A stretch of 64,000 bases of DNA, taken from Bdellovibrionales bacterium. Its GTDB lineage: Bacteria > Bdellovibrionota > UBA1018. Location: assembly GCA_016786465.1 (NCBI GenBank), contig JAEUWC010000019.1, forward strand, positions 25,905 through 89,904, in the 5' to 3' direction. Both the position numbers and the translations under genes were made by a program. The notes under the pieces were generated by a model. That model had not been told where the DNA came from. It saw only the letters and a list, made by a program, of their open reading frames with translations, and did no database searches. This document shows positions 1,672 to 57,517 of the stretch, piece by piece (within the stretch, counting starts at the first letter, position 1; every line of letters begins with the position of its first letter).

Positions 1672-3150
1672 ATGGGATTTCTGCGCCGAAAAAACCGACA
1701 GTCTTGGGCCCTGCTGGCCGGCTTATTTGCTGTGTTTTTTGCGTGTGGAAGTAACCAAAAACCGCTCCCAGAAAAAACCCCAATTGGTGACATCGCCACC
1801 CGAGACCTTGCCGAATCCATGCGCCTGATCAAGGAAGCGCAGATGACTTGCGCGGCCGGGGTTTTGGGAAGTCCTGAATGCAATCCTTCGGTCGCTTTAG
1901 TCGCAGTGGCGCTGGATACCAACGTCGCTGTTTGCACGGGTGCTTTGATTGAAGAAAACCTGGTCTTGACCGCTGCCAGCTGCCTTCCTCACGAACTGCG
2001 CGAAGAAGGCGCGAACTGTAAGGGCCGAATTCAATTTGCGTTTGCCGCTGATTCAACTCGATCCCCGGTTTCTGTGGGTTGTGATCGAGTAATCGAAATT
2101 TCGCAAAAACCTTCGGCACAAACCCGAGTGTCGCCTGATAGCGTGGTCATTCGGTTAGAGAAATCACCCAAGCGTCCGATCTTGGTGGTTCAAGAACAGG
2201 GCGGACTTTCGGATGGTGAAAAGGCGACGAGCTTTCGGATTTTCCGAGAAACCAACGGTGGATCGGGTTTTCTAGGGGCCAAAATCGAAAAAATCACTTG
2301 CCAGGCGAAAACGGGAAGCGTGGCGCTGCTCACTTACCAAGGACCTGGATCACCCAACGCTCTGGTTTCAGATTGTACCTTTCATAAGGATCAAAGGGGC
2401 GCACCGCTATTAGGAAAAACCGGAAACCTTCAGGCGATTTTGGGTTCGGAAATGCCCACTTTGGATGCGATGGGAGCATTCGGTACGCTTTTGGTATCAG
2501 GAAAAACCTTAAAACCCTTGATTTATGCCACTCAAGTGGGCTGCGCGCCGCTTTCCAGTATTTCCCTAAGGCGCCCAGGCCCCGGTTGCGACGCTGTTGA
2601 AAATTATAAAAGCAGCGATGAACTTGTGAAGACGGCTTTCAATCGAATGGACCAAGCCGCGCAAGATCGATCGCGCTTAGACATTGTGAAAGAATGGTCG
2701 AAAAAGCATCTTCCTCATCTTCAAGATGCGATTCGATGGCAGCCGCGACTTTTGCCAGCGAACTTGATCAAAATTTCTCAGTCGGGAAGCCCGAGCTTAC
2801 AAGACAATGTTTTCTTTCCTTTTCCCCAGTGTTTTGAAGATGCGACAAATTGGCGAAAAGATCGTCGGTTTCGTACGTTCCTGGACCTGTTCATGAAGTC
2901 GCGCTACACCGAAGGCCCGTTTGATCTTCCTCGGTGGGTGTTTCGACTTCGTCTTGACGAATACCTCAGGCCTGCTCCGGAAATCGTAGGTGCAATCGGG
3001 ACTGTCGAAGCAAAGCTTCATTTCAGCCCAGTGGGCGCAAAACGAAAAGGCGGATCGCCCGTGACGATGGAAGCGGCCGGTTCAAGCGGCGAGATGTCTG
3101 TCATTGCCGAAGAACAGGTTACCGTCTGTCCTAGCGCGACTTCACCTTGA
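1672..3150 (+). CDS. Lipoprotein with a degenerate (probably inactive) trypsin-like serine-protease fold
   Basis: Lipobox FFACGS. The motif CTGALIEENLVLTAASC mirrors the trypsin CGGSLI..WVLTAAHC, with the catalytic His replaced by Ser. The oxyanion/Ser195 block GDSGGP is replaced by DQRGAP. Confidence 0.5.
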   Translation: MGFLRRKNRQSWALLAGLFAVFFACGSNQKPLPEKTPIGDIATRDLAESMRLIKEAQMTCAAGVLGSPECNPSVALVAVALDTNVAVCTGALIEENLVLTAASCLPHELREEGANCKGRIQFAFAADSTRSPVSVGCDRVIEISQKPSAQTRVSPDSVVIRLEKSPKRPILVVQEQGGLSDGEKATSFRIFRETNGGSGFLGAKIEKITCQAKTGSVALLTYQGPGSPNALVSDCTFHKDQRGAPLLGKTGNLQAILGSEMPTLDAMGAFGTLLVSGKTLKPLIYATQVGCAPLSSISLRRPGPGCDAVENYKSSDELVKTAFNRMDQAAQDRSRLDIVKEWSKKHLPHLQDAIRWQPRLLPANLIKISQSGSPSLQDNVFFPFPQCFEDATNWRKDRRFRTFLDLFMKSRYTEGPFDLPRWVFRLRLDEYLRPAPEIVGAIGTVEAKLHFSPVGAKRKGGSPVTMEAAGSSGEMSVIAEEQVTVCPSATSP

Positions 3151-4597
3151 CCTTAAAGTTTCGAACCGGACCTATGATCGCTTTGCCATAGGCCGTATTT
3201 GAACTGACTCGCGCGTAGTAATTTCCCGGTTGAATCACGTAAAGTTCGCTGAAATTGATCAATACGGTCTTGGCAAACATGACCATTTGAAATTTGGGAT
3301 CAGACGCAATTTCAAGAAGGTATGATTTGGTTCGATCCGTGGTGTTCCAAGTGACCAAGGACTTCTTTCCCTTTTCAAGCGTCACGACTTCGCCCTCTTT
3401 GGGTTCCCGAACAACAGGTGGCGGAATCTTGAACTTCACCCGTTGCGTAGGGGATTCAAGTTCGAATCCCGATCGAAGAACGGCGGCGATCTTGTAATCG
3501 TACTGTGAAAGAGGGTCAAATTCTGGAAAAAGGACCGAGGGTTCCGTAACTTGAGTCGAAGTCACGGGTGCACCCTGAGCTGTCGTGATTCGAACTTTGT
3601 AATGCTTCGCAGGAACTTGTTCCCAATGCAGTCGGATTTGCGGAATCCAAGTGGGGTCCAAAAGCTTAAGCGCATTTTCAGCCGCTGCTTGAACGGTAAT
3701 TCGATTTTCACCCACGACCCGTTTTTGTGAATCCAAGACTCGGGTCACGTAATAACCTGGTTTTGCAAATGCCACTGGAACCGTGGCGCTGCCATCGGCA
3801 GCGGATTGGATCGGTTGAAGAACGCCCTTCGCGTTTGCTCCGGTATCGGCAACGATTTCCAGCATCGACCCTGGCAATGCCTTTTCAAGTTTGAAGCGAA
3901 TCTGAGTCACGACTTTTCCTGCTCGAGCCTGAGCCGCAGTCGGCTTTACGCTTCCGGCTTTCGGCGGAACTAGCCACTGAATATTTGATTTAACAAACGG
4001 CAGCACCGACGGGCTAGGTGTTGCAGAAGGTGCGACCTGAACGGGAACGGGCGGGGCTTTGGTGACTGAAAAAGTTTCGATGGGCTTTGGCGGAGCGACC
4101 ACTTTGGGAACAGTGGCTACGGCTTTGAACTTGGTCGACCAATCTTCTTGGGTCTTCTTGATTTTAATTTTTCCATCGCCACCTGAAAGCTGGCTAAAAT
4201 CAAAAGAAGCCAACGCCATTTCTCGGGTCAATTTCAGCAAAGAATCCGGTCCCATGCGGATTTCAAGATCGGGCTTTAGAACAAAGACGCACTCGGACTG
4301 GGGCCCGCTGACAATCGTGTCGTCGATGTAAAGGCTTTGGTTGGGCGTGACGGCGTCATAAACAAAGTTTTCACTGGGTTTTCGTTCGCAGCGGCCCGTA
4401 AATGACGAAACCAGTGCGATCGGTTCGCTCATTAGGGACGCATCATAAGTTCCAAAAATCCAATACCGGATTCGCTGTGACGACGTGGAAAGAAGCAAAA
4501 CCATCAAGGCCAGAAAAAGGGCGACGCCGATTGCGATCTTTTCGTAAAGCGGTACGCCTAATGGATCTTTTTCGGGTGCGACTGCGGCTGTGCTCAA
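3131..4597 (-). CDS. Membrane-anchored FecR-like domain protein with two C-terminal FN3-like repeats; paralogue of 8548..10419
   Basis: N-terminal TM helix IAIGVALFLALMVLLL. Central segment SLYIDDTIVSGPQSECVFVLKPDLEIRMGPDSLLKL resembles FecR (PF04773). The C-terminal ~60-aa units YKVRITT...VKFKI and YLLEIASDPKF...YYARV...FKVKV are shared with the 8548 protein. Confidence 0.45.
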   Translation of the reverse strand: MSTAAVAPEKDPLGVPLYEKIAIGVALFLALMVLLLSTSSQRIRYWIFGTYDASLMSEPIALVSSFTGRCERKPSENFVYDAVTPNQSLYIDDTIVSGPQSECVFVLKPDLEIRMGPDSLLKLTREMALASFDFSQLSGGDGKIKIKKTQEDWSTKFKAVATVPKVVAPPKPIETFSVTKAPPVPVQVAPSATPSPSVLPFVKSNIQWLVPPKAGSVKPTAAQARAGKVVTQIRFKLEKALPGSMLEIVADTGANAKGVLQPIQSAADGSATVPVAFAKPGYYVTRVLDSQKRVVGENRITVQAAAENALKLLDPTWIPQIRLHWEQVPAKHYKVRITTAQGAPVTSTQVTEPSVLFPEFDPLSQYDYKIAAVLRSGFELESPTQRVKFKIPPPVVREPKEGEVVTLEKGKKSLVTWNTTDRTKSYLLEIASDPKFQMVMFAKTVLINFSELYVIQPGNYYARVSSNTAYGKAIIGPVRNFKVKVKSR

Positions 4598-4613
4598 AAT
4601 CGCTCCTTAGGGT

Positions 4614-6437
4614 TTAATGAAGTTCAGCCATGACCAAGGTAATATCATCATCCAGCGGGCGGGGCCCTGTGTGGTCAAAGACGGCTTGTGTGACTTGCTG
4701 GATCCCAGCGCCAACGTCTGCGCGGCTAGCCGAGGTCAAGACATTGCGCAGGCCTTTTCTTCCAAATTGCTTCAATTCTGCGTTCATCGCTTCGATCAGA
4801 CCGTCGGTATAAAGAAATAGGCGATCACCCGGCTGGTAACTTAGGCCGATCATTTCCCAAGTGCTTGCGTCTAAATTTCTCGATTCGCCCAGGCGATTTC
4901 CACGCGGAGTCAGGCCTTTGATTGCTCCACCGCCGGAAAGTGAAACAAAATATTGGGGGTTGTGACCCGCGGATGAAGCGAAGATCTTCTTGGCTTGGTG
5001 ATCCACGACACACGCAAAGTAAGTCATCATGATGTCGCCTTGTGCAGAATCAAAAATGGCTCGATTGGCCAATTCTAAAACGCGTTTGGGCGAAATCTGG
5101 TCGGGTTGTTCGGTTGCGAATTTTTCAAACATCGAAAACGAAGACCGTGCAGCCGCGGTGATCAGCGCCGAGCTGACCCCGTGACCCGTGGCGTCTGCAA
5201 TTGCAAAAACGGTTTTGCCGGGAAATTCAGCGATTCCCCACCAATCACCACCGCATTCGCTTGCCGAGCGGTAAAAAGATGCGACTTGGCTTTGGGCTGT
5301 TGAAATGAATTCGCGGGGAAGAAGTTTTCCCTGGACCGCCTGTGCAATTTTCAGTTCCTGGTCTAGACGCGATTTTTCGACTAGATCTTGAATCAACGCT
5401 TTGATCTTTTGGCTCATGAAATCGAACGAACGGGCCAGTGCGCCGATTTCATCTTTGGATTCCACAGCGATTTCGATATCAAACTGACCTTCGCTGATCT
5501 GGTGGGTTGCGCGAAACAGATCCCGAATGGGCGAAGTAATTCGGCGAATCAGGAAGGTCCCGGCCAGAATCAAGACTGACATCAGCCCCATTCCGAAAAG
5601 AACGATCTTTTCAACCAAGCTGTACATCGCCTGAACGACCTTGCGGTATTCGGCGCGAACCAAGACGTAAATTCCCAGGTCTGTTTTCGAAAAGCTGGAA
5701 AGGTATTCTTTGTCGCCTGTGACTTTCTTGGAACCGTTCGGGAGCACGCTTTGTTTGGCGGATAAAAAAACTGGGTCTTGGCTAAATGTGGCCTGATTGG
5801 ATCCCAAGATTTGGGTCACATCTGAATCCATCAATGCGTAGCCCTGCGAATCGACAATCGAAAAGCGATTGGTTCCGGCAGACAGTGAATCGAAAAAGGT
5901 TTTCATCGAAACAAAGCCGACCAAAAGCGGTTCCGGACTTCCTTCGCCCAGAAGCAGAACCATTAGGCGGGGTTCTTTTGGGTCTTTCGTGACGTTTCTG
6001 AAAAGGTAGCGCTTGGTCTTTAATTCCGCCATCCACGGCAAAAGGTCGGGTTCGGCATCAAATCCTTTGCCGACTTTAATTGGCGGATTCACCGCTTTGG
6101 GTTTCGGATCTTCTGCAGTCACTTCGAAAAGTTCGAAACCTTCAAGCACGCTTTGATTCTGGAAGACCTGTTCTAAATTCGTTCCCGGAATTTTTGCAGA
6201 TGCAGCGACAGAACGAAGCACGTCCATCGCGCCTTTCAGGCGTCCGTTGATTTCGCGCGCAGAAAAACTAGCTTCTGAAACCTGGTTGTCAAAAACGCTG
6301 ACTTCTTTGTCAGAAACAAATAGGCGACTTGCCGTGAAACCCAGGAAACCAATGGAAACCAAAACGATCGCGATGAGCGCGAGCAGGATCTTTCCGGCCA
6401 CCGTGATTCGAATCGGAGTAGTTGAATCGGGTTTCAC
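4614..6437 (-). CDS. Membrane sensor phosphatase: TM, periplasmic domain, TM, HAMP, then PP2C (SpoIIE/RsbU family) Ser/Thr phosphatase
   Basis: Two TM helices flank a ~250-aa extracytoplasmic domain. The HAMP region is IRDLFRATHQISEGQFD..EIGALARSFDFMSQKI. PPM motifs are intact: GGDWW, IADATGHG, LFLYTDGLIEA, DDDITLVMAELH. Confidence 0.7.
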   Translation of the reverse strand: MKPDSTTPIRITVAGKILLALIAIVLVSIGFLGFTASRLFVSDKEVSVFDNQVSEASFSAREINGRLKGAMDVLRSVAASAKIPGTNLEQVFQNQSVLEGFELFEVTAEDPKPKAVNPPIKVGKGFDAEPDLLPWMAELKTKRYLFRNVTKDPKEPRLMVLLLGEGSPEPLLVGFVSMKTFFDSLSAGTNRFSIVDSQGYALMDSDVTQILGSNQATFSQDPVFLSAKQSVLPNGSKKVTGDKEYLSSFSKTDLGIYVLVRAEYRKVVQAMYSLVEKIVLFGMGLMSVLILAGTFLIRRITSPIRDLFRATHQISEGQFDIEIAVESKDEIGALARSFDFMSQKIKALIQDLVEKSRLDQELKIAQAVQGKLLPREFISTAQSQVASFYRSASECGGDWWGIAEFPGKTVFAIADATGHGVSSALITAAARSSFSMFEKFATEQPDQISPKRVLELANRAIFDSAQGDIMMTYFACVVDHQAKKIFASSAGHNPQYFVSLSGGGAIKGLTPRGNRLGESRNLDASTWEMIGLSYQPGDRLFLYTDGLIEAMNAELKQFGRKGLRNVLTSASRADVGAGIQQVTQAVFDHTGPRPLDDDITLVMAELH

Positions 6438-6486
6438 TGAGTCATAGGATAACCAAACATCCTAAAAACTCAAAACTTTCCAGCGG

Positions 6487-8370
6487 CTAAGCCGCTTTCT
6501 TTTGCGTTGCGCCAGCTGACAGATCTTTGCGCACGAAGTAGGCCTTTTTGGGGATCGCAAGAATCATCACAGTCGCGTCATCGGGAAGCGCGGCTGCGGC
6601 TTCTCCCCAGATTGCTGTGGCCTGTTCGGTCAGTTTTTCTGAAACCCGATCAGCTTGTGGTCCGAAGTGATCCACGGCTTGTGCGATTTCCTGGTACATC
6701 CGGTCTTGCGACAGAATTCTTTCGCCTTTCAGATTTCGGACGCCAAACCATCCAGGCGTGTGGAAAAACATCACATCTTCCGGGAGAAGTTCGAAGTATT
6801 CTTCTTTAAAAGTGTAGTCGGCCGAACGTCCCAGCGGGCCATTTTCACGAACACCCATTCGCATGAATCGAAACGAAAACACTTTTGGCGGTTCTTTGGG
6901 TTTAGGAGGCAGCCGATGGATCCATGGAGCAGGGCCGCTGCAATTCACCATTTGAATCAGGCCCGCGTGAATGTTGAAGATGTAAACGAACGCGTTCATG
7001 GTCGTTTGGCCTTTGCCGGTTGCAAACAACGTCGAGTTGAGTTGGTTCACCAGTCCCTGAAGCGTGGGGTCTTGGCGATTGGCCTTTAGGTTTCCAATAT
7101 ACGAACTTAAAGAACCGTGCATGGCGGCGGTCACCAACGCACCTTGAACACCGCGGTGATTGGTGTGACCGATGACTCCGATGGCGTAGTCACGAACTTG
7201 AAAAGTGGTCCACCAGTCCCCGCCAAATTCAGGGCAAGCCATCATTTTGCCAAAGATTTGAAGATTCTCATGCTTCAAGGCCTCGCGCGGCGTGAACTGT
7301 TCTTGGATCGTGGCAATCGTTTCGCGGTTTTTCTCGGTGGCGACTTTAGCGGCCGTTTGAGCCATCAAGCTATCAATCTTACCGGCCATAGCGTTGAAGG
7401 ATTCCCCAAGCGCTCCGATTTCGTCGTTGCCCATGATGTCAGCGCGAACTCGAAAGCTGAATTCACCCTTTGCGACCTGTGACGTCGCTTCCACCATTTG
7501 CCGAAGTCCTTCGGTCAATCGACGAACGAAGACCAGGGTTAAGCCGATCGCAATGGCTAGGATGCTTCCACCTAGGGTTAACGTGCGCAGAATCAGATCG
7601 CGAATAGCTGAAAACGCTGCATCTCGCGGAATGATTCCGATCACGGTCAGATCGCTGGGCTTGAGTCGCTGATAAGCGGCAATCATTTCGCCAAAATCCG
7701 TGTCCCAAAGCTGGGCTCCGGAATCAAAGTTTCCGTTAAGTACCGGGCGAACCAGTTTTTTGATTTGTCGCTCGGGCAGCATTCCGCGCTTGCCCTTGTA
7801 CTGGCCAAAGACCACGGTTCCCACCGGATCCACCAGATAAAGGTCAAACGAAGTTCCGTTTTCGCCCATTCCAAGATCGGGAAGTGCAAAGGCCACATAG
7901 GCTTTACGTGCAATCACGTTATCGTCGGCTCCGATTTGCTTAGGCGCAAATCCGATGACGACTTCTTGATTTTGGGTGCGGCCCACAAGATAGGGTTCTG
8001 AAACAAAACGTCGAGCCGTCCACCCCAGCGTGTCTAGGGCGCGCCCCTGGATGGCGCCTTCGGATCCAAAAGTCTTGGTCACCGAAAGACTTCCGTCTTC
8101 TGAAATATCCAAAAGCAAAAGACCGCGCAGGCCCAGCTTTTTGGATCGACCCCGAAAAAGGACTTCATTCGGGTCCGCGGTGTTGGGATTTTGACGCTGC
8201 TGAGGTCCAATGGATTGTTGGTGAAAAAGTTGAAGCAGCATCACGATGGATTCAATTTGGCTTTCAACGGACTTGGCGGCGGCTTGAACGCGATTGAAGT
8301 TAAAGTCGACCACGTACGAGCTCTTGTCCTCGACGATATGGGTCGTGCCCGCCAGCATCACGGCGCCCAA
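6487..8370 (-). CDS. Paralogous TM-HAMP-PP2C-like sensor protein with degenerate metal-binding motifs; the true start is probably upstream (about 8445) at a non-canonical CTG
   Basis: The HAMP (LRQMVEATSQVAKGEFS..EIGALGESFNAMAGKI) and PPM fold are recognisable, but DATGHG becomes GVIGHT and YTDG becomes HTPG. Homology to the paralogue's TM1 continues upstream of the first canonical start codon. Confidence 0.6.
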   Translation of the reverse strand: MGAVMLAGTTHIVEDKSSYVVDFNFNRVQAAAKSVESQIESIVMLLQLFHQQSIGPQQRQNPNTADPNEVLFRGRSKKLGLRGLLLLDISEDGSLSVTKTFGSEGAIQGRALDTLGWTARRFVSEPYLVGRTQNQEVVIGFAPKQIGADDNVIARKAYVAFALPDLGMGENGTSFDLYLVDPVGTVVFGQYKGKRGMLPERQIKKLVRPVLNGNFDSGAQLWDTDFGEMIAAYQRLKPSDLTVIGIIPRDAAFSAIRDLILRTLTLGGSILAIAIGLTLVFVRRLTEGLRQMVEATSQVAKGEFSFRVRADIMGNDEIGALGESFNAMAGKIDSLMAQTAAKVATEKNRETIATIQEQFTPREALKHENLQIFGKMMACPEFGGDWWTTFQVRDYAIGVIGHTNHRGVQGALVTAAMHGSLSSYIGNLKANRQDPTLQGLVNQLNSTLFATGKGQTTMNAFVYIFNIHAGLIQMVNCSGPAPWIHRLPPKPKEPPKVFSFRFMRMGVRENGPLGRSADYTFKEEYFELLPEDVMFFHTPGWFGVRNLKGERILSQDRMYQEIAQAVDHFGPQADRVSEKLTEQATAIWGEAAAALPDDATVMILAIPKKAYFVRKDLSAGATQKKAA

Positions 8371-8547
8371 GCTAAAGACCAGCGCCGAAGTGGTGAGGAA
8401 AACGATCTTGGTTCTGACTGAAATTCGGGTCGGGCTTTGGGACAGAAAAAGGGCCTCCTGAAGTCTTCTCTATTTCTTCGGGTTTTATGGGGAATATTTT
8501 GAGTCGTTTTTCAAGACCCACCAAAGGCGTGCCGATAAAGAGAGGCG

Positions 8548-10419
8548 ATGTCTTCTAAAGCGTCAAAAGTTCAATTTATTTCCAGAGGTTGGGGGCTCGA
8601 AAGGCCGCTGAGCTATGCATTGATTGGAACGGGGGCCTTGGGCCTTTATTCGTCGATCAACAACGAGCGCTGGAAAAGGGTCGTCGAAGATGAAAATTCA
8701 GGCGCCAAAATTGGGCTTGTGGAATCCAATGGGTCGGGCGTTCGCGTCAAGCATGCGGGCGGATCCGTTTGGCAGGATCTGAGCGGAACCCAAGACGCGA
8801 TCGAGGGGGATTCGATTTATACCGATTCCACCGCCAGCGCGAAACTTCGGTTAAAGAGCAAAGACGTTTTGGAAGTGGGTCCCGGAAGCTTGGTCATTGC
8901 TCGATTGGAAAAATCCAAGCCCGCAGAAGACCTACCCTGGTGGCAAAAAGTAGCGCAGCCTTTAAACGACGATAAACCCAAACCCATGCAGCTTGAAGTG
9001 AAGAAGGGTACCGTCCAAGTTGGCATCTTGGCTTCAGGCGGGGCGTTGTCGCTTACGGCTGGTGGTCAAAAGCTTCAGCTGAAATCCAAGGGCGGGCCTG
9101 CACAAGTGAGAATTCAAGTGGACGGAACAGATTCGGCCGGAAAACCGATTGTGAAACTTCAGTCCGCCGGCGGCAACGTTCAAGTTGCCGAAGCAGGAAG
9201 CAAGGTTTCTCGAGCCCTTCCGACGGGGCAAGCCGTTGTGGCCGCAGCCGGGGTAAATGGGGCCGCTTGGAAAACTTCCAAGGCCATCGAAACGCCTGTG
9301 ATTCAGGCCGAAAAAGTAACCACTCCGAAAGTGGTCGGCCCGATTCCGGGAACGGAATTGAAAGCAGATGCTGGAAAATTAAATGAAGTGACTTTTTCGT
9401 GGGAAAAGTTGCCGCCGGGAATTTATGGCGAACTTGAAGTGCGATCAGTTCAAACCACCGCGCTTGCAGCGCGATCAGAAGGTAGCCGAAATGGGGCGTC
9501 GGTTTCACTTCCTTTAGGTTCATTTGACTGGCGCGTTCGCGCACGGGCTGGTGAAGCGGGACAGAAGTCCGAATGGACATCCTATCAACGTCTGGATCTA
9601 GTGGAATCGTTAGGCGGACGTCCAAGCATCACGCAGGCTCCGGATCCAGAATTCAAAAAAGTGATCGCCCTTGCTGCCGCACCAAAGCCGGCGCCGGTTG
9701 CGGCTCCAAAGCCGGCTTCTGCTGCAAAGCCTGCTTTTTTGAATGCAAAACCTAGTTTTTCAGTGGCAAAGCCCAAGCCGCAAGCCACTTGGGTTCCCAA
9801 AGCCGGAAGTACTCCGGTTGCTGTAAAGCCGGCAGCAGTCGCGGTTCCGGTCAAGGCAGTGATCGGAGCAATAGCGCCTTGGTTGGTGCCTGCACCTGTC
9901 AGTCAAATGGATCGATTGACGTTTGATGCAGGTTGGATGGCAGTGGGTCTAACGAAAAACTATGTCGTAACCGTCTTTAAGGACGGCGTGCAGACGGAAA
10001 AAGAAACCACAACCGAAGCAAAACGAAGGATCACAATCGTCGACCTGAATGTGAAGCAGGGGTATCAGTTTCAAGTTCAAGCCATGGACGCAAACGGCAA
10101 GGTGATTGCTGAAAGCCCGAAAGTGGCCATCGCATTAGAACTTGGGATTCCAAAAGGAGCCGAACCGGTGGATGGCGCTGAAGTCGCAGGATCGGACAAG
10201 ATCATTCTGACTTGGTCCAAGGTTCCGATGGCTGAATTTTACGATATCGAAATCGCCGGTGACCCCCAGTTCAAAACGCAGACCCGGTCCACGCAAACGG
10301 ATAAGAACTTCGTATCCTTTAGAAAGACCACACCGGGGACGGTTTACTGGCGCCTTCGTGCTAAATCGGGGGCAAAAAATAGCCAATGGTCAGCACCCAG
10401 GAACTTCAAGGTCAAATAG
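8548..10419 (+). CDS. FecR-like domain protein with an Ala/Pro/Lys-rich linker and three C-terminal FN3-like repeats; divergent from the phosphatase operon
   Basis: DAIEGDSIYTDSTASAKLRLKSKDVLEVGPGSLVIARL is FecR-like. The linker is APKPAPVAAPKPASAAKPA. Repeats end ...WRVRARAGEAGQKSEWTS and ...YWRLRAKSGAKNSQWSAPRNFKVK, matching the C-terminus of 3131..4597. Confidence 0.45.
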   Translation: MSSKASKVQFISRGWGLERPLSYALIGTGALGLYSSINNERWKRVVEDENSGAKIGLVESNGSGVRVKHAGGSVWQDLSGTQDAIEGDSIYTDSTASAKLRLKSKDVLEVGPGSLVIARLEKSKPAEDLPWWQKVAQPLNDDKPKPMQLEVKKGTVQVGILASGGALSLTAGGQKLQLKSKGGPAQVRIQVDGTDSAGKPIVKLQSAGGNVQVAEAGSKVSRALPTGQAVVAAAGVNGAAWKTSKAIETPVIQAEKVTTPKVVGPIPGTELKADAGKLNEVTFSWEKLPPGIYGELEVRSVQTTALAARSEGSRNGASVSLPLGSFDWRVRARAGEAGQKSEWTSYQRLDLVESLGGRPSITQAPDPEFKKVIALAAAPKPAPVAAPKPASAAKPAFLNAKPSFSVAKPKPQATWVPKAGSTPVAVKPAAVAVPVKAVIGAIAPWLVPAPVSQMDRLTFDAGWMAVGLTKNYVVTVFKDGVQTEKETTTEAKRRITIVDLNVKQGYQFQVQAMDANGKVIAESPKVAIALELGIPKGAEPVDGAEVAGSDKIILTWSKVPMAEFYDIEIAGDPQFKTQTRSTQTDKNFVSFRKTTPGTVYWRLRAKSGAKNSQWSAPRNFKVK

Positions 10420-10519: not shown

Positions 10520-11146
10520 ATGGACCTAGAAGGGGTGCGTACTACTTTACTCAGTGCCGTTGGACCGAATGCCTACCCGGTCTTCTTTGGTCTTTTGATC
10601 AGTGGATCGTTGGGAATGCCCGTGAATTCGGACACCCTTTTGATTCTTGGAGCGGTGCTCGCTGCGACTGGTCACCTGGACATTCAAGTCCTGATCATCG
10701 GTGCCCCGATGACGATTCTAGCTGGCGACACGATCAATTTTTTTATCGCTCGAAAACATGGAAAGAAAATCCTGGCGACTCGGTTTTTTCGTCGGTGGGT
10801 TTCGATTGAAAAGCAGGCGCAGATTCAAGACTTCGCCACGCGGCACGGGGCAAAGTGCATTTTCATGACCCGGTTCACGCCACTTCTGCGGGCGGTGACG
10901 TTCTTCATTTCAGGAAGCGTTCAGGTCAAACCGAAAACTTTTTTTGCAATGAACGGACTAGCAACTTGGATTTACGTACCCAGCTTGCTTTTGGCCGTTT
11001 ATTTCACCGCAAGCCACCTTCAAGAATGGGTGGATGGTTATCAAGTTTTTGTCAAAGGGGCACTAACCGCGACCGGCCTAGCCCTTTTCTATTTCCTTGC
11101 AAAATGGGCCAGTCGAAGATGGATGGAGAACGGCAATGCATCTTGA
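10520..11146 (+). CDS. DedA-family (SNARE-associated / VTT domain) inner-membrane protein
   Basis: Multi-pass membrane protein with the DedA signature region ...ILAGDTINFFIARKHGKKIL... and an overall DedA layout. Confidence 0.6.
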   Translation: MDLEGVRTTLLSAVGPNAYPVFFGLLISGSLGMPVNSDTLLILGAVLAATGHLDIQVLIIGAPMTILAGDTINFFIARKHGKKILATRFFRRWVSIEKQAQIQDFATRHGAKCIFMTRFTPLLRAVTFFISGSVQVKPKTFFAMNGLATWIYVPSLLLAVYFTASHLQEWVDGYQVFVKGALTATGLALFYFLAKWASRRWMENGNAS

Positions 11147-12759: not shown

Positions 12760-13693
12760 ATTGAAAAAGATCGCGTTTCTTATTTTGTTTCTATTCTCGC
12801 TCAGTCCCTGGGTGCGCTCGGAAGTCGCGCTTGCTACGGGACTGCTTTGGGCGTTTTTATTTCAGAATCCGTTCCCGGCAGATTTGACAAAAAAGTTTCA
12901 GGGCAGACTGCTTCAAGGATCAGTCGTTGGGCTTGGGTTTTCAATTCAGCTGGGGGTTGTTTTATCGACTGGGTCATCCAGTCTGGGAATGACCGCGGGT
13001 TCCATTGCTGGAACCTTTTTGTTGGGGTTCTTTCTTTCGCGTGTGATTCGCGTTCCAAATAAAATGCAGGTCTTGGTGTCGTCTGGAACGGCGATCTGCG
13101 GGGGTAGCGCTATTGCTGCAGTCGGACCGGTTATTTCGGCCGACCGAACTGAAATGTCCATGAGCCTAGCGGTCGTTTTCATTTTAAATTCCGTAGCGCT
13201 TTTGATTTTTCCAAGCCTGGGACATTGGGCGGGATTTAGCCAAGAGCAGTTTGGACTTTGGGCCGCATTGGCAATTCATGACACCAGTTCCGTGGTGGGT
13301 GCCGCATCTAGTTTTGGACCTGTGGCCTTGGGTCATGCAACGACCGTAAAGCTGGTTCGCGCACTTTGGATTTTGCCGCTTTGTTTGGTGATCGGATTTG
13401 GCTTCCAATTTTTAGGTCAAAAGAATCGGTCCGCGAAAGTCCCTTTTCCATGGTTCATTTTCGGGTTCTTAGCTGCAAGCGGGCTGTCCAGTTTCGTTCC
13501 ACAGTGGGAAAGCGTCTGGAAAATGATTTCAACGATTTCTCGGCACGCACTGGTGGGGTCGATCTTTCTGATCGGAGCAGCCATGGACCCTGCGACGATC
13601 AAGAAATCGGGTGCCGCAGTCGTCGGGTATGGAACCATTTTGTGGGTCTTAGTGGGAACGCTTTCGTTTCTTTTCGTAAAGGCGAACGGCTAG
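12722..13693 (+). CDS. YeiH/UPF0324-family putative sulfate-exporter-type membrane protein
   Basis: About 10 TM segments with the conserved ICGGSAIAAVGPVI block. The start is uncertain because the annotated ATG overlaps the SDR gene by 38 nt. Confidence 0.55.
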   Translation: MNLRPLRSTKRSRLKKIAFLILFLFSLSPWVRSEVALATGLLWAFLFQNPFPADLTKKFQGRLLQGSVVGLGFSIQLGVVLSTGSSSLGMTAGSIAGTFLLGFFLSRVIRVPNKMQVLVSSGTAICGGSAIAAVGPVISADRTEMSMSLAVVFILNSVALLIFPSLGHWAGFSQEQFGLWAALAIHDTSSVVGAASSFGPVALGHATTVKLVRALWILPLCLVIGFGFQFLGQKNRSAKVPFPWFIFGFLAASGLSSFVPQWESVWKMISTISRHALVGSIFLIGAAMDPATIKKSGAAVVGYGTILWVLVGTLSFLFVKANG

Positions 13694-14341
13694 GGGAATT
13701 GCCGCAAGGACCAGGCTTAGAATCCATTCCCAAGCCGATGTGGTTTGGGTTCCCGATCCGGGCGCAAGAACGGACCCTCCCCAAGAATAAAAGAAGCTGG
13801 CCGGAAGCATCGCCAAAAAAGTAATGCCCATGAATGGGGCGACCCGCATTTGCGTCATCCCAAACGCCCAATTAATGGACCAAAAAGGGATGAAGGGAAT
13901 GAAGCGCGCTGAAAAAAGATACTTGCCTCCGTGTAGCTTGGCTTCATGAAGGATGGGGTCAATCTGTTTTCCCCATTTTGCCAAAATCCAAGCTTTCAAA
14001 AATCTTCGCGCCAAAAGAAAGGCCAAAGTCGCGCCGGCAGTGCTTCCAAACGCCACCAAAATGGGTCCAATCCATTTACCAAAAAACATCCCAGCCAAAA
14101 GATTCAAAAAAACCGCCGCAGGAAAAACGGCAAGAAAGGAAATGATCGTGTAGCCCAGAACAAATGCAACGGTGGATTCGACCCAGTTGGCTTGCACCCA
14201 GTTTTGCATCACTGAAATTCTTGAAAGCAGGTCGGGAAGGTAAGAAAGATAGGCGACCAATCCAATGGCCAAGAACAAGAAAAATGCCCCCAAAAAAGCG
14301 GCGGGATTCCTTATGTTTCGAATTGGATCCGTTTTTTCCAT
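13649..14341 (-). CDS. TVP38/TMEM64 (DedA-superfamily) membrane protein, last gene of the egt-linked operon
   Basis: Membrane protein with the ...LAGMFFGKWIGPILVAFGSTAGATLAFLLARRFL... signature. Overlaps the upstream ATP-grasp gene end by 31 nt. Confidence 0.55.
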   Translation of the reverse strand: MEKTDPIRNIRNPAAFLGAFFLFLAIGLVAYLSYLPDLLSRISVMQNWVQANWVESTVAFVLGYTIISFLAVFPAAVFLNLLAGMFFGKWIGPILVAFGSTAGATLAFLLARRFLKAWILAKWGKQIDPILHEAKLHGGKYLFSARFIPFIPFWSINWAFGMTQMRVAPFMGITFLAMLPASFFYSWGGSVLAPGSGTQTTSAWEWILSLVLAAIPLAVRLYEKKRKRSH

Positions 14342-15573
14342 TCTTCCTCAAGGGCTTTTCTAAATGCCGGAATTTCAGGTTCTTGATCAAAACTGGCATG
14401 AATCGCTAAGTACCGAAATGAATCGGGGTCTTGGGGCAGGCGCGAAAGCCTTTTGCCTTCTTCATAAAGCGGGTAGCCTTCGATCCAGCCGGGAAGATTA
14501 GAAAGTTCGTCCCAGTCTGATTCCCCCAATCCTTTTTTGACTTTTGCGTCTTGAAACAGACGAAAAACCAGGCTGGACGCAATTTTTTGAAGTTTTTTTG
14601 TGTCTGGAAGTTTTGGGTCTTTTCCACTTGCCAGAGCGACGGCGACGTCAATGCTGTTTACACCCAAGACGGAATCGTAAAGGTCGCTAAACTGGGACGC
14701 GCCACGGGGGTTGACTTCGATGATTTTTAGCTGTTGGGTTTTTGGATCAAAGCGCCACTCGATGTTAAAAAGTGTGGAACGAAGGCCGGATTCAAAGGCT
14801 AGTTTTAATGAGGCTTCCGAAATTTGTTTCTGAACGGCGCGGGGTAGTGAGCTTGGAAATCGAAATTCAGAAAAACTTTCAGTTCCATCGTAAAAATGGG
14901 AATCCGTGATTCCGATGGGGTGCGCCTGGGTTTGGGTGACGTACCCTTCAAAAGTGCATTGGATTCCTGGAACCCAGGATTCGGCGATAAATTCGCGGGC
15001 GGAAACTTTTAAACCCGCATTTGCGGCAAATTCGTGAAAAGGGCGCATTAGGAACCGAAATAAAAAGCGTTCGCGAATCGTCAGCCGTTGGTAAGCTTCC
15101 AAGTCTGCCTGTTGCTCAATTTTCTTGGATCGAACTGAAAGCAAACCCTTCACGGGTTTTGCAAAAAAGGGAAATGCGAAAGCAGACGGCCCGCTACCTT
15201 CAATCATCTTGGAAAACCCCGGTGTAAATTCGGGGCAGATCTTTTTCTGAAGTTCACGGGACAATCTTTTGTGGGACAGTTTCAAAAGATCCGGAAGGCG
15301 CGGCCCGGGAAGCCCAAGACGATCGGCAATATAGGAAGCTGCTAGGCAGCCGGGGTAATCCTGAAAGCTCAAAACGGCAGTGACGGGGGGGTTTAAGCGC
15401 CTGGCTTCTTCGACCCATTCGTCACAAGTCTTGATGATTGATCGGGTCCAGGGGTTGCGTGATCCCTGGAATTCTTTGAATTCAACCTGGGCGTCAGGAT
15501 TCCTTCGGCTCCATTTTTCAAAGCCCTTCTTTTCGAAAATGCTTGGAAAAATGACCCAGATTCGTTCACGCAT
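14311..15573 (-). CDS. ATP-grasp family ligase, translationally coupled to egtD
   Basis: C-terminal ATP-grasp core KIIEVNPRGASQFSDLYDSVLGV. Its start ATG(15573) overlaps the egtD stop as ATGCGTGA. 420 aa. Confidence 0.6.
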   Translation of the reverse strand: MRERIWVIFPSIFEKKGFEKWSRRNPDAQVEFKEFQGSRNPWTRSIIKTCDEWVEEARRLNPPVTAVLSFQDYPGCLAASYIADRLGLPGPRLPDLLKLSHKRLSRELQKKICPEFTPGFSKMIEGSGPSAFAFPFFAKPVKGLLSVRSKKIEQQADLEAYQRLTIRERFLFRFLMRPFHEFAANAGLKVSAREFIAESWVPGIQCTFEGYVTQTQAHPIGITDSHFYDGTESFSEFRFPSSLPRAVQKQISEASLKLAFESGLRSTLFNIEWRFDPKTQQLKIIEVNPRGASQFSDLYDSVLGVNSIDVAVALASGKDPKLPDTKKLQKIASSLVFRLFQDAKVKKGLGESDWDELSNLPGWIEGYPLYEEGKRLSRLPQDPDSFRYLAIHASFDQEPEIPAFRKALEEEWKKRIQFET

Positions 15574-16510
15574 GAAAAAGGACTTCCACGAAATTGTGAT
15601 TTTTATCCGACCAAGACTTCACGAATTTTAGCCCCAGGCGATGAAATCTTTGGATCAGTTCAATTTCGTCAAATTTATGTGAATTCTCGGTGTGAATGGA
15701 TTCACCGCGGCGAAATGAAATTTTGTGCCCTAGCACTTCGATTTCCTGGTCAAAGTCCGAAACCAAGTGCATTTCGATTCGTCGTTCATGGGGATTGAAG
15801 CGTGCCTCGTGCCGAAAGGTTTCGGGTTGAACGCGGGCACCCAATTCTGAACGCATCCGGACCAATAGATTTCGATTGAATTGGGCTGTGATTCCAGCCG
15901 AATCCCAGTAAGCCGGAACTAATTCTTCTTTGGATTTCCAGCGATCTACCCCAAGGATGAAAGCGCCCTTTCCGGGCCTGATAAAATCTAAGGTCCGTTG
16001 AATCAGGGCGTCGATTTCGTTGGCATCTAAGTTTCCCAACGTCGATCCGGGGAAAAAAACCAATCGACGCCGATTTGACCCCAGCTTCTGGTTTAAATCC
16101 TGAAAGGGTTCGTCTTTAAGAAAATCACCTTCAAAAGGATCCACCCAAAGTCGAGGAAGCTTCTTGGCTAAGGAATGAACGCTCATTTCCAAATAAGCTG
16201 GCGAATAATCCATCGGGACGTAAGTCGGAAGTTTCGTCCCGGGCGGAAGCTTCGAAAGAATTTTGGCGATTTTTTCGCCGGATCCCGCACCGTATTCAAC
16301 GATGACATCAAATTCAGACATGTGATGGGCGATCTCAGAACCATGGATTTCAAAAATCTCGTTCTCCGAGCGCGTCAGGTAGTATTCGGGTAGGTCGCAG
16401 ATTTTCTCAAAAAGTGCGGCGCCGTTTTTATCGTACAGGTACTTGGGATGGGTTCGCTTGGGAACGGATTGAAGGCCTTGAAGGATGTCCTGACCAAAAC
16501 TCGGGGTCAT
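15566..16510 (-). CDS. egtD: EgtD-like SAM-dependent L-histidine N-alpha-methyltransferase (ergothioneine pathway)
   Basis: PKYLYDKNGAALFEKICDLPEYYLTRSENEIF and VIVEYGAGSGEKIAKIL match EgtD hallmarks. The chosen start is the internal Met (MTPSFGQ...) whose ATG overlaps the egtB TGA as ATGA. The longer ORF in the track would overlap egtB by 241 nt. Confidence 0.7.
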   Translation of the reverse strand: MTPSFGQDILQGLQSVPKRTHPKYLYDKNGAALFEKICDLPEYYLTRSENEIFEIHGSEIAHHMSEFDVIVEYGAGSGEKIAKILSKLPPGTKLPTYVPMDYSPAYLEMSVHSLAKKLPRLWVDPFEGDFLKDEPFQDLNQKLGSNRRRLVFFPGSTLGNLDANEIDALIQRTLDFIRPGKGAFILGVDRWKSKEELVPAYWDSAGITAQFNRNLLVRMRSELGARVQPETFRHEARFNPHERRIEMHLVSDFDQEIEVLGHKISFRRGESIHTENSHKFDEIELIQRFHRLGLKFVKSWSDKNHNFVEVLFHA

Positions 16511-17823
16511 TTTTGGCCTCGGTCCGTGGGTGCATCGATCGAGCGCGCCAGTCGAAAGCCAGAAAACTGCCACTGTGTCGCTGGTGGAAAAAAGTTTCTG
16601 TAAGTGGGGCGGAAATGGTTTCGGGGTGTGGCAACTGACCCCCCTCGAAGCACCATTTGGTTGATCATAAACTTTCCGTTGTATTCGCCCAGTGCTCCGT
16701 CCTGCGGTTTGAAACCCGGATAAGGAAGGTACGCGCTTTGGGTCCATTCCCAGACCTGTCCCGTGATTTCTAAAGGGCGATCCACATCCGTCGACCCAAC
16801 GGACTGGGGTTCGCTAGGTGCCACGTCTAAGAAGTGCTTTTGCGTGCGCGAAACCTGGTTCGAAGTGGCCGCAAGTTCCCATTCGTTTTCGGTCGGCAAT
16901 CTGGCGCCGTGGGTCCGGCAATAGGCATCCGCTTCGAAATACGAAACGTGGGAAACGGGACTATCTAGCCAAAGGGGATCCGCCATGGATACGGGGCCAT
17001 TCAGGGTGTAAACGCTTTTGTTTTTTAAATCCCAATACATAGGCGCGACAGGTCGTCGATCCCATCCGTCGGATAGCCATTTCCTGGGGTCCGCATAAGC
17101 CTTGGATTTTAGGAACTCCAGGTACTCTCCATTGCGCACCCAAGTGGACGACATTTCAAATGGGGCCACCCAGTTCGAATACCGAGGCGCTTCGTTGTCG
17201 AAGTGGAAGCCTTTTCCCGAAAAACCGGTTTCAATCAGGGCCCCTTCAAAGCGAACCCATTTCCGGGTCAAAGAAGATCTGGGATCAGCGTTCCGCGGGG
17301 AACTGTTTTTGAAGTAGCTGGGCAAAAGGGGCTGTAAACCGAGAATCGACTTTAAGTCGGTAATCAGAAGTTCCTGGTGCTGCATTTCGTGGTGAATTCC
17401 CACCTCGAGATTCGAAAGAATTCTATTTTGGCTTTGAGGATCGAGCTTGGGCAGCTGCTTTCCCAACAAGTGCGCCATTTTTTCGTCGCAGTCTTTTCGG
17501 TACTGCATCACGGATTTCAAATTCGGCCGGGACAGATGAACGCGTCGGTTTCGATCCAGGTGATCGCCTAGGCCCTTGTAGTAAGAATTGAAAAGGTAAC
17601 CAAACTGCGGATGAAAAGCATCGTGCTTGGCTTCAGCCATCAAGATGAAGGTTTCAAAGAACCAAGTGGTGTGGGCCAAGTGCCATTTCAGGGGGCTTGC
17701 TTCTGGAATAGGTGCAACATTGAAGTCGTCTGGGTCCAGGGGTTCGACAATCGCAAGGCTTAGGGCTCGCGTTTTTTGAAAGTCTTCCAGTAATGAAACC
17801 GAAGTGGCGGTTGCTTCTTTCAT
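16507..17823 (-). CDS. egtB: EgtB-like sulfoxide synthase: DinB_2 domain plus FGE-sulfatase (formylglycine-generating-enzyme-like) domain
   Basis: N-terminal WHLAHTTWFFETFIL and C-terminal ...GGSVATPRNHFRPTYRNFFPPATQWQFSGFRLARS are typical of EgtB/OvoA-class iron sulfoxide synthases. Confidence 0.75.
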   Translation of the reverse strand: MKEATATSVSLLEDFQKTRALSLAIVEPLDPDDFNVAPIPEASPLKWHLAHTTWFFETFILMAEAKHDAFHPQFGYLFNSYYKGLGDHLDRNRRVHLSRPNLKSVMQYRKDCDEKMAHLLGKQLPKLDPQSQNRILSNLEVGIHHEMQHQELLITDLKSILGLQPLLPSYFKNSSPRNADPRSSLTRKWVRFEGALIETGFSGKGFHFDNEAPRYSNWVAPFEMSSTWVRNGEYLEFLKSKAYADPRKWLSDGWDRRPVAPMYWDLKNKSVYTLNGPVSMADPLWLDSPVSHVSYFEADAYCRTHGARLPTENEWELAATSNQVSRTQKHFLDVAPSEPQSVGSTDVDRPLEITGQVWEWTQSAYLPYPGFKPQDGALGEYNGKFMINQMVLRGGSVATPRNHFRPTYRNFFPPATQWQFSGFRLARSIDAPTDRGQK

Positions 17824-17848: not shown

Positions 17849-18829
17849 ATGAAAAATTCCCTGGGTCCAATTTCAAATTTCATCAAACACAATTTTCGCC
17901 ATTTCAATGCGGCCGCTTTGGTTGATGCTGCAGAGGGCTATAAAACACACCTGGATTCCGGGGGAAAAATGATGGTGACGCTGGCCGGTGCCATGAGCAC
18001 TGCCGAATTGGGACTGACCTTGGCGGAAATGATTCGCCAGGACAAAGTCCACTTGATTAGCTGTACCGGCGCAAACCTGGAAGAAGACGTCTTCAATTTA
18101 GTTGCGCATAGTCACTATGAACGTGTTCCACACTACCGCCAGCTTTCACCACAAGATGAAGTGAAGCTTTTGGAAAAACACATGAATCGCGTCACTGACA
18201 CCTGTATTCCTGAAGGCGAAGCGATGCGCCGCATGGAAAAGGTCATGTTGGAACTTTGGACGGATGCTGACAAGAAGGGTGAAAGCTACTTCCCGCACGA
18301 ATTTTTCTACAAAGCAATCCTGAGCGGTAAGCTCAAACAATTTTACGAAATCGACCCGAAGGATAGTTGGATGGTTGCGGCTGCGGAAAAAAATCTGCCG
18401 ATGATCGTTCCAGGCTGGGAAGATTCAACGCTAGGCAATATGTACGCTGCAGCATGTATGCGCGGCGATGTGAAACGCGTTCATACGACGCGCACTGGAA
18501 TCGAATACATGACCTCACTTGCGGAATTCTATCAGTCCGTAACGAAGCGCGCTTCTCTTGGGATGTTTCAAATTGGCGGTGGCATTGCCGGCGACTTCCC
18601 AATTTGTGTCGTTCCAATGCTTCACCAGGACATGGGAATTGAAGCACGTCTTTGGGGATACTTTGCGCAAATCAGCGATTCAACCACCAGCTATGGATCC
18701 TATTCAGGCGCTGTTCCGAACGAGAAAATCACCTGGGGTAAGCTCGGCGTCGACACTCCTAAGTTCATTGTCGAATCCGATGCAACCATCGTTGCTCCGC
18801 TGATCTTTTCGTACATCTTGAACCACTAA
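17849..18829 (+). CDS. Deoxyhypusine synthase-like (DHS/homospermidine-synthase fold) protein
   Basis: LISCTGANLEEDVFNLV resembles the DHS TTAGG.EEDL block. About 326 aa, consistent with bacterial DHS-like proteins. Confidence 0.5.
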   Translation: MKNSLGPISNFIKHNFRHFNAAALVDAAEGYKTHLDSGGKMMVTLAGAMSTAELGLTLAEMIRQDKVHLISCTGANLEEDVFNLVAHSHYERVPHYRQLSPQDEVKLLEKHMNRVTDTCIPEGEAMRRMEKVMLELWTDADKKGESYFPHEFFYKAILSGKLKQFYEIDPKDSWMVAAAEKNLPMIVPGWEDSTLGNMYAAACMRGDVKRVHTTRTGIEYMTSLAEFYQSVTKRASLGMFQIGGGIAGDFPICVVPMLHQDMGIEARLWGYFAQISDSTTSYGSYSGAVPNEKITWGKLGVDTPKFIVESDATIVAPLIFSYILNH

Positions 18830-56964: not shown

Positions 56965-57473
56965 AACCCCGGAGCCGCTTTCTTTGCGTCGCTTCCCAAG
57001 ACTTGAGCTGCTTCTTCGGCGCTGATTTTTCCTGCGGCCAGTGCTTCTTGAACGATTTTCTTAGCTTCGGCTTCATCGAGGTCGCCAGAAGTCGCCGTTG
57101 TCGCAGACGCGCCAACACCTTGGGAAGCCATAAATCCGGCTGCCATCTGCTTCAATTCCGGGGGCAGGAATCTTTCAAATTCCTGGGCTTCACGAGAAAC
57201 GTCTTTTCCAGCCATTGCCTTTTGCATCAGCGACTGAAGCTTTTGAAGCTGACCGCGCGGAAGGCGCTGCAGTGCGCCCATCATTTGGGTCATCATCGCC
57301 GGGTCCATCTTCGAGGGGTCAAAGCCACCCGCTGGTACGCCTGGAATACTGGAATTTGAAGTCTGGGCCGCAGCTGCCGGAGTCGTCAAAACAGGAGGAG
57401 CATCAATTCCGTGGCAACGTTTGTACTTTTTTCCGCTGCCGCAATGGCAGGGTTCGTTTCTTTTTAGTTCCAT
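56937..57473 (-). CDS. SEC-C metal-binding-motif protein (N-terminal CHCGSGKKYKRCHG)
   Basis: The Cys-x-Cys...Cys-His zinc knuckle is identical in pattern to the SecA C-terminal / YecA SEC-C motif. The rest is Ala/Gln/Met-rich. Overlaps the BtpA start by 28 nt. Confidence 0.55.
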   Translation of the reverse strand: MELKRNEPCHCGSGKKYKRCHGIDAPPVLTTPAAAAQTSNSSIPGVPAGGFDPSKMDPAMMTQMMGALQRLPRGQLQKLQSLMQKAMAGKDVSREAQEFERFLPPELKQMAAGFMASQGVGASATTATSGDLDEAEAKKIVQEALAAGKISAEEAAQVLGSDAKKAAPGFWDRIRGKK

Positions 57474-57517
57474 AGGTCAGTTCCATAGCGTTACCCTAGG
57501 AAAAAAGGAACCGCAAC

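Follow-up and report, generated by a model that had tools for sequence, protein, structure and literature searches.

The locus described here raises the question of whether a gene for a sensor phosphatase that has lost part of its metal site, and that opens without a canonical start codon, is a copy in decay or a working protein of a different kind. It lies on the minus strand (6487..8445) of a stretch of 64,000 nucleotides, referred to below as the window, which covers positions 25,905 to 89,904 of contig JAEUWC010000019.1 in the genome assembly GCA_016786465.1 of a Bdellovibrionales bacterium. The gene comprises 652 codons and the stop codon TAG (6489-6487), and Pfam assigns HAMP and SpoIIE domains to its product. 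A second HAMP-PPM sensor gene, in which the catalytic motifs are intact, follows downstream on the same strand (4614..6437, with a GTG start). A first-pass annotation of the window offered three readings of the gene: rare initiation at a CTG codon, start-codon decay of a degenerating paralogue, or an inactive regulatory pseudo-enzyme paired with the active copy. Comparison with related loci makes it probable that the gene is intact and functional, that it belongs to an old clade of transmembrane pseudo-phosphatases, and that it starts at CTG.

Reading frame and start codon

The minus strand from 8472 to 6487 forms a single open frame of 661 codons, and the 652 codons of the gene are free of stops and frameshifts. 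As the first-pass annotation had reported, no canonical start (ATG, GTG or TTG) is found between the in-frame stop TAG at 8472-8470 and the TTG at 8370, with which the listed open reading frame (ORF; 6487..8370) opens, and a CTG at 8443..8445, the proposed initiation codon, follows a perfect Shine-Dalgarno sequence, AGGAGG, read directly at 8454..8459, with a spacer of 8 nt. Codons 2-25 (8371..8442), which lie 5' of the first canonical start, encode the SVRTKI motif and the first half of the first transmembrane helix (TM1, residues 12-36, 8338..8412), a segment with a Kyte-Doolittle 19-residue mean of 2.20 that falls within helix 10-40 of the AlphaFold model. A motif of the form (S/P)xR(L/V)(K/R)(I/L) is kept at the N-terminus across the family, and the BLASTP alignment of the two window paralogues (21% identity, E = 2e-23) begins at residue 2 of the CTG-extended protein and includes TM1, so the upstream homology that had been noted at first is borne out. 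A start at TTG 8370, or at ATG 8358 where the annotated product (NCBI MBL7715734.1) begins, abolishes TM1 (Kyte-Doolittle 0.62 and 0.27, respectively); the layout of two transmembrane helices around an outer domain, together with HAMP, holds only with a translation start at or before codon 10 or thereabouts.

The orthologous locus L103, which is the locus of P0008, the second member of the annotated protein's cluster, stems from an unrelated sequencing run and shows the same gene order and 93.1% amino acid identity to the window gene. Exactly at the position of the window CTG, L103 reads ATG, the codon that the first-pass annotation had proposed to look for in orthologues; its start, ATG TCT CAG AGT AGC CCA AGC CGA ATT TCA GTC, aligns with CTG TCC CAA AGC CCG ACC CGA ATT TCA GTC in the window. 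The CTG also aligns codon for codon with the GTG of L001, which is preceded by GGAGGAGGGG. The equivalent start is ATG in L104, TTG in both L105 and L106, GTG preceded by GAGGAG in L107, and TTG in L108, where AGGAGG stands 8 nt before the start and a Ser codon after it, as in the window. A canonical start occupies the equivalent position in all of the relatives read there (8/8), and most of the more distant orthologues with GTG or TTG at the start site have a strong Shine-Dalgarno sequence.

Within codons 2-25, the window and L103 differ by 14 synonymous changes and 1 non-synonymous change; the intergenic DNA directly upstream is just 52% identical. Since change in these codons is mostly synonymous and the orthologues start at the same place, the region between the CTG and the first canonical start is best read as coding, and the CTG as sitting at the ancestral start position. 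The downstream codons TTG 8370 and GTG 8361 read CTA and GTC in L103 and are therefore not conserved starts. Two further codons, ATT 8424 and ATC 8406, were ruled out as initiators, as the sole Shine-Dalgarno sequence lies at least 29 nt upstream of both. We infer that initiation in this genome occurs at the CTG itself, by initiator tRNA. Among the readings first offered, rare CTG initiation is thus the one favored by the ATG of L103, the GTG of L001, the TTG with AGGAGG of L108 and the excess of synonymous change.

CTG appears among the annotated bacterial start codons (10.1101/063800). Like the documented non-canonical starts of bacteria (CUG, AUU, AUC and AUA; table 11), the window CTG would be a near-cognate codon at a normal start position behind a Shine-Dalgarno sequence, and it differs from them in that its use is read from comparison among orthologues. 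L103 has ATG without AGGAGG, whereas the window has CTG with a perfect AGGAGG, and this single contrast suggests that a weak codon is offset by a strong Shine-Dalgarno sequence. Such a combination might respond to initiation factor IF3. The hexamer is otherwise scarce, with 5 copies on both strands of the window versus 22.9 +/- 5.2 expected from shuffles (a 4.6-fold depletion), and only the copy at 8454-8459 precedes a long ORF.

An assembly or sequencing error that put C at 8445 in place of A, G or T, and so disguised an ordinary start, is very unlikely. The window derives from a metagenome-assembled genome (MAG), a single assembly was found with the exact sequence, and the eight relatives are uniformly canonical at this position, all of which would fit such an error; on the other side, the frame and the Shine-Dalgarno sequence are intact, the region looks otherwise undamaged, and assemblies from short reads seldom contain substitution errors in their consensus.

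Some observations on starts elsewhere may be recorded here. By a crude scan, for which each ORF was taken to open at its first in-frame canonical start, few long ORFs of the window had a strong Shine-Dalgarno sequence upstream. At 57393-57682, a perfect AGGAGG is followed after 7 nt by an ATT that opens a frame of 92 codons; a canonical start is absent at this distance, and the arrangement may be due to chance. The public gene calls (NCBI, Logan, JGI) for the HAMP-PPM family often begin within or after TM1 (window 8358; L103 3001; L106 3001; L107 1814; L108 3001); the call in L103 skipped an in-frame upstream ATG, and those in L106-L108 missed TTG or GTG starts with Shine-Dalgarno sequences. 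Three truncated calls that appeared to be devoid of canonical starts (P0020, P0034 and P0041) were rejected as parallel cases, as TTG or GTG starts with Shine-Dalgarno sequences are present and had been overlooked by the gene callers.

Selection and decay

Over the 652 codons, the window gene and L103 show a non-synonymous divergence (dN) of 0.046 and a synonymous divergence (dS) of about 1.9, and hence a dN/dS ratio of about 0.024. The ratio is 0.026 for the PPM domain alone. The pseudo-phosphatase gene is also the best conserved of the four genes shared with L103, with 93.1% amino acid identity versus 87.5% for the active paralogue, 86.3% for the divergent fn3-repeat gene and 76.2% for the third minus-strand gene. 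Purifying selection acts strongly on the whole protein, and the dead catalytic domain is no exception. The distance to the outgroup P0004 is 1.08 for the window copy, 1.16 for L001 and 1.22 for P0003, and in the distances to both P0004 and P0005 the window copy does not exceed its orthologues. A dN/dS of about 0.2 was obtained for L001 versus L004; the ratios between the window and either of these two loci are uninformative, as dS is saturated.

Because dN/dS is about 0.024 and the relative rate is not raised, the gene does not appear to be decaying. Together with its position in the tree, far from the neighboring copy, this leaves little of the proposal that it is a degenerating paralogue with a decayed start codon. 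A variant of that proposal would place the loss of the start (ATG or TTG to CTG) so recently that the gene, although silent or nearly so, has an ORF which is yet undecayed. A single substitution indeed separates the CTG from the L103 start (ATG) and from that of L108 (TTG), CUG initiates poorly in E. coli (10.1101/063800), and a second, active HAMP-PPM sensor adjoins the gene in the window lineage. Nevertheless, such a loss is unlikely: even if a neutral phase were the source of all the non-synonymous change, it could account for no more than about 2.4% of the path that separates the window from L103 (dN 0.046 / dS 1.9), the 652 codons contain neither stops nor frameshifts, the relative rate is not elevated, and a perfect AGGAGG at optimal spacing has been retained though the genome otherwise avoids this hexamer.

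Lost metal ligands

In SpoIIE, the side-chain metal ligands are D628, D746 and D795, of which D628 and D746 are the predicted M1 and M2 ligands (PMC5468089). Two of these three are replaced in the window protein: His427 (CAC, 7165..7167) takes the place of the motif-II Asp, a residue that bridges the metals and is equivalent to D628 of SpoIIE and D60 of PP2Calpha, and Pro564 (CCT, 6754..6756) that of the motif-8 Asp, equivalent to D746. The active paralogue reads GGDWW, DATGHG, YTDGL and DDDIT, its motifs being intact as first described, versus GGDWW, GHTNHRG, HTPGW and PDDAT in the pseudo-phosphatase. The stretch from GGDWW to GxG is 20 residues long in both paralogues, without gaps, and the assignment of His427 to the motif-II Asp is therefore unambiguous. 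An alignment of 156 sequences by MAFFT puts the losses in the same columns, and the same assignment results when a profile of 21 pseudo-type sequences is aligned to one of 38 active-type sequences (hhalign probability 100, E = 4e-138, 629 columns). The claimed loss of two metal-coordinating Asp residues thus holds in the pairwise, multiple and profile alignments alike, and the possibility raised at the time, that the ligands persist at shifted positions, finds no counterpart in the protein, in which no Asp or Glu occurs within 4 residues of either lost position.

The His of the GHG motif is also replaced, by Arg. The motif-I GGD (D410), the motif-11 DD (D622-D623, equivalent to SpoIIE D795) and the helix after motif II, which corresponds to the switch helix of SpoIIE, are retained. 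From these replacements, a loss of all catalysis is inferred.

A clade of pseudo-phosphatases

An exhaustive HMMER search recovered 751 family members below 1e-30, and the residues in question were examined in the best 150 of these. About 24 representatives (clusters at 50% identity) among this best 150 are without the motif-II Asp, and nearly all of them are also without the motif-8 Asp. The motif-II Asp is replaced most commonly by Lys, followed by Asn, Gln, Glu and His, and the motif-8 Asp most commonly by Pro, with Ser, Ala, Gly, Ile and Thr also occurring; the GHG His is mostly Arg across the clade. One member, P0015, keeps TDG at motif 8. In a neighbor-joining tree, the representatives that have lost Asp form one clade, nested among active HAMP-PPM proteins. 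The linker motif ARMExxLxxA, near-invariant in the active relatives, is gone from the clade, which shows a set of conserved outer-domain residues of its own. Those members that carry organism names come from MAGs of Bdellovibrionota. Since the losses are shared across the clade, the loss of catalysis appears to be old and maintained, and the part of the first-pass annotation that saw in the gene a regulatory pseudo-enzyme is upheld by a clade of about 24 clusters.

This breadth depended on the search employed. Word-indexed protein searches, with a single protein or with a profile of 3 sequences, returned 3 pseudo-type relatives and falsely suggested rarity, and scans of genome and metagenome contigs with degenerate patterns returned no new locus of the clade, their matches being of the active type or to HAMP only. 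As a separate observation, a Myxococcales MAG (L021, about 5331-8135) contains two ORFs for PPM proteins; in one of them GASTCDG replaces GDVTGHG, and it may represent a further pseudo-PPM of independent origin.

The protein could in theory still be an enzyme with a remodeled site, in which His427 and His430, with D410 and D622/D623, bind metal. Histidine can ligate Mn or Zn, the GGD and DD are kept in an intact fold, and P0015 preserves one of the lost motifs. Such an enzyme is nonetheless highly improbable: the clade mostly has Lys at motif II and Arg for the GHG His, the Pro at motif 8 cannot ligate metal, the replaced residues correspond to the predicted M1 and M2 ligands D628 and D746 of SpoIIE (PMC5468089), and the linker motif of all active relatives has been lost as well.

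Architecture of the protein

The pseudo-phosphatase is predicted to consist, after TM1, of an extracytoplasmic, dCache-like sensor domain (residues about 40-280, 7606..8328; dN/dS 0.022), a second transmembrane helix (TM2, residues about 283-309, 7519..7599; Kyte-Doolittle 2.31, with a hydropathy peak at 283-314), a HAMP domain (residues 306-357, 7375..7530; PF00672, E = 2.3e-12), a helical linker (residues 358-400, 7246..7374; helix 342-384 in the model) from which the ARMExxLxxA of active relatives is missing, the pseudo-PPM domain (residues 401-632, 6550..7245; PF07228, E = 1.6e-10, and Foldseek) and a C-terminal tail, PKKAYF...KKAA (residues 633-652, 6490..6549), all on the minus strand. 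The tail is 100% identical to that of L103, and PKKAYF is kept in the clade. The PF07228 match covers residues 431-630 with 41.7 bits (cutoff 25), compared to 117.2 bits and E = 1.2e-33 in the active paralogue.

No Pfam match was found in the extracytoplasmic domain. In Foldseek comparisons of the AlphaFold model, this domain resembles the ligand-binding domains of TlpA (6e0a), Mlp37 (5ave) and 7k5n. The PPM part gives a target-normalised TM-score (TMt) of 0.75-0.81 to the C-terminal domain of P. aeruginosa RssB, 3pu9 and RsbX, with E about 1e-11 for 3f79, 3pu9 and 3w40, and further matches to SiaA, Rv1364c and SpoIIE; in the model, the PPM fold is thus complete. By sequence, the profile of the pseudo-clade matched no solved structure at E <= 0.01; only the active paralogue did so.

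The pseudo-phosphatase of the window ends in KKAA (the last two codons being at 6490-6495), and its active paralogue in AELH. Among 153 proteins of the HAMP-PPM family, active and pseudo, 48 (31%) end in Ala-Ala and 75 in Ala, while an Ala-Ala end would be expected by chance in about 1% at an Ala content of 9.6%. The C-terminal Ala-Ala could be a degradation signal.

The active paralogue and the gene neighborhood

The gene order of the pseudo-phosphatase and the active HAMP-PPM sensor, adjacent and co-oriented, is the same in the window and in L103. The two proteins are far apart in the neighbor-joining tree, and their sensor domains and linkers differ; a recent tandem duplication is ruled out by the tree and by their 21% identity. 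The GTG start of the active paralogue (6435-6437), 49 nt past the stop of the pseudo-phosphatase gene, has no recognisable Shine-Dalgarno sequence; it is kept in L103 (4922), where the gene caller likewise picked a downstream start.

Could the inactive protein then serve as a subunit that heterodimerises with the adjacent active paralogue, or competes against it, and thereby tunes its output? The adjacency and common orientation of the two genes in both loci would be consistent with this, as would the dimerisation of such PPM sensors through crossing linkers (PMC12143880). Yet none of the 8 further clade loci that were read, two of which are short contigs, has an adjacent active copy, and the two proteins share about 20% identity, lie far apart in the tree and have unlike sensor domains and linkers. 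This arrangement is rather unlikely. The pairing proposed in the first-pass annotation is seen in the window and L103 only, whereas its pseudo-enzyme component stands.

Between the paralogues, an inverted repeat, AGCGGCTAAGCCGCT, at 6482-6496 spans the stop of the pseudo-phosphatase gene and is followed on the coding strand by GGAAAGTTTTGAGTTTTT. A role as a weak terminator or an attenuator is conceivable; across the region, sites that resemble terminators are about as frequent as expected by chance. A scan for sigma-70 promoters across 4400-8800 returned nothing.

On the other side of the pseudo-phosphatase gene, a divergent gene on the plus strand (8548..10419) encodes a membrane-anchored protein with fn3 repeats (fn3 E = 9e-7) and is a conserved neighbor. 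In L103, L001 and L105, homologues of it are placed divergently in the same way (BLASTP E = 1e-28 to 1e-44), and divergent genes of similar size are found at the same place in L106-L108 and beside P0013. A FecR match was seen in the L001 orthologue of the fn3 protein only, at 22.1 bits and thus below the cutoff of 24. The third gene of the minus-strand cluster (3131..4597), which is also downstream in L103, encodes a fn3-like protein of 488 residues. The products of 3131-4597 and 8548-10419 are partial paralogues over their C-terminal 120 residues, which are fn3-like (E = 8e-9), and both have N-terminal hydrophobic anchors.

A gene for an SLT lytic transglycosylase lies downstream of the pseudo-phosphatase gene in L001, L004, L106 and L107 and is convergent in L108. 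Elsewhere, the downstream gene has a weak YkuD match (by P0013), encodes an ABC transporter (L105) or is a convergent UvrC gene (L104). The fn3-repeat gene and the frequent SLT gene suggest a link to the cell envelope. No STAS or RsbW-type/anti-sigma kinase domain was found by Pfam among the window ORFs from 32 to 29254, nor in the L001-L108 neighborhoods.

Further along the window, two genes for VTT/DedA-type membrane proteins (10520-11146 and 13649-14341) lie on opposite strands within 3 kb. The region 14311-17823 encodes an ATP-grasp protein (14311-15573), an EgtD-like histidine methyltransferase (15566-16747; PF10017, E = 3e-91) and an EgtB-like FGE-sulfatase/DinB protein (16507-17823). 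The EgtD- and EgtB-like genes look like an ergothioneine-type biosynthesis pair; their ORFs overlap by 240 nt, and one of the two probably has its true start farther along. A deoxyhypusine synthase family protein (PF01916, E = 5e-43) is encoded at 17849-18829 of this bacterial genome.

Discussion

The reading that we consider probable, that of an intact and functional transmembrane pseudo-phosphatase of old descent with a CTG start, has several points weighing against it. CUG initiates at 1-2% of the level of AUG in E. coli reporters (10.1101/063800), and the amount of protein might be very low. The base at 8445 is read from one assembly, so that an erroneous base, or an A/T-to-C change of very recent date, is possible. 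The neighbor-joining tree carries no support values, and the AlphaFold model was built on an alignment of 8 sequences, with a mean predicted local distance difference test score (pLDDT) of 73 that reaches 80-90 in the PPM part. His427 and His430, present in the subclade of the window and L103, could in principle bind metal. STAS and anti-sigma kinase genes, which might point to a partner, are absent within about 7 kb on either side.

PPM pseudo-enzymes are known from few cases, among them E. coli RssB, TAB1 and PHLPP2. The window protein shares with the PPM enzymes of the RsbU/SpoIIE type that carry HAMP (PF07228 + PF00672) the order of domains, the fold, the GGD and DD, the helix after motif II and the long helical linker; it differs from them in having lost the equivalents of D628 and D746, the GHG His and ARMExxLxxA, and in that no STAS or RsbW-type genes are nearby. 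By analogy, it would work most like RssB of E. coli, which delivers sigma-S to ClpXP, while standing outside the RssB family. RssB retains a non-catalytic PPM domain as a protein-binding module regulated via the switch helices (PMC5468089, PMC12143880), and the window protein would do likewise. RssB is a cytoplasmic protein with a receiver domain, and its inactivity stems from the C-terminal truncation of its PPM domain, whereas the window protein has a complete PPM fold in which the ligands are replaced by point changes, a transmembrane dCache-HAMP input and no receiver domain. For an RssB-like delivery of clients to ClpXP, the sole hint in the family is the C-terminal -AA in 31% of its proteins. 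TAB1 and PHLPP2 resemble the window protein in combining a full PPM fold and a diverged metal site with a scaffolding or binding role (PMC12002173; for TAB1, also PMC5468089); they are eukaryotic, of independent origin and without a membrane sensor architecture.

A mechanism may be proposed on the regulatory model of the RsbU/SpoIIE/RssB switch (PMC5468089, PMC12143880). The receptor would be a dimer that binds its ligand outside the cell at the dCache-like domain. From there, HAMP and the crossing helices of the linker would relay the signal to the switch helices of the PPM domain, as in active enzymes of the RsbU/SpoIIE type. The output would be an altered affinity for a partner protein, which would be held, released or scaffolded without dephosphorylation, in the manner of the pseudo-PP2C adaptor RssB. 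The CTG with its perfect AGGAGG at 8 nt would provide low but real expression.

One may speculate that the Lys or His and the Arg, which now stand where metal was once bound, could hold a phosphate group. Extending this, the clade could be one of undescribed transmembrane receptors that use the PPM fold as a reader of phospho-Ser/Thr, in which Lys/His and Arg fill the two-metal site and bind without hydrolysis. Capture or release of a partner would then depend on an extracellular signal, which the fn3-repeat protein might help to sense; the targets of this partner would include cell-wall remodeling by the SLT transglycosylase, and weak starts with strong Shine-Dalgarno sequences would keep the copy number of the receptor low. 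Taken jointly, these proposals are doubtful.

The consequences of the probable reading, a functional pseudo-phosphatase with a CTG start, concern both annotation and signaling. Public annotation of the window gene and of several relatives starts 3' of TM1, so that the products are wrongly predicted to be without the first membrane helix. The window CTG would be a well-supported comparative case of a near-cognate start paired with a perfect Shine-Dalgarno sequence. To our knowledge, and as far as the literature searched shows, no conserved group of membrane receptors with a catalytically dead PPM domain as output has been reported before. With about 24 diverged sequences, the clade also offers a naturally occurring collection in which basic residues have taken over the metal site; if the proposed mechanism is true, the use of the PPM allosteric switch to drive non-catalytic outputs would extend to transmembrane signaling.

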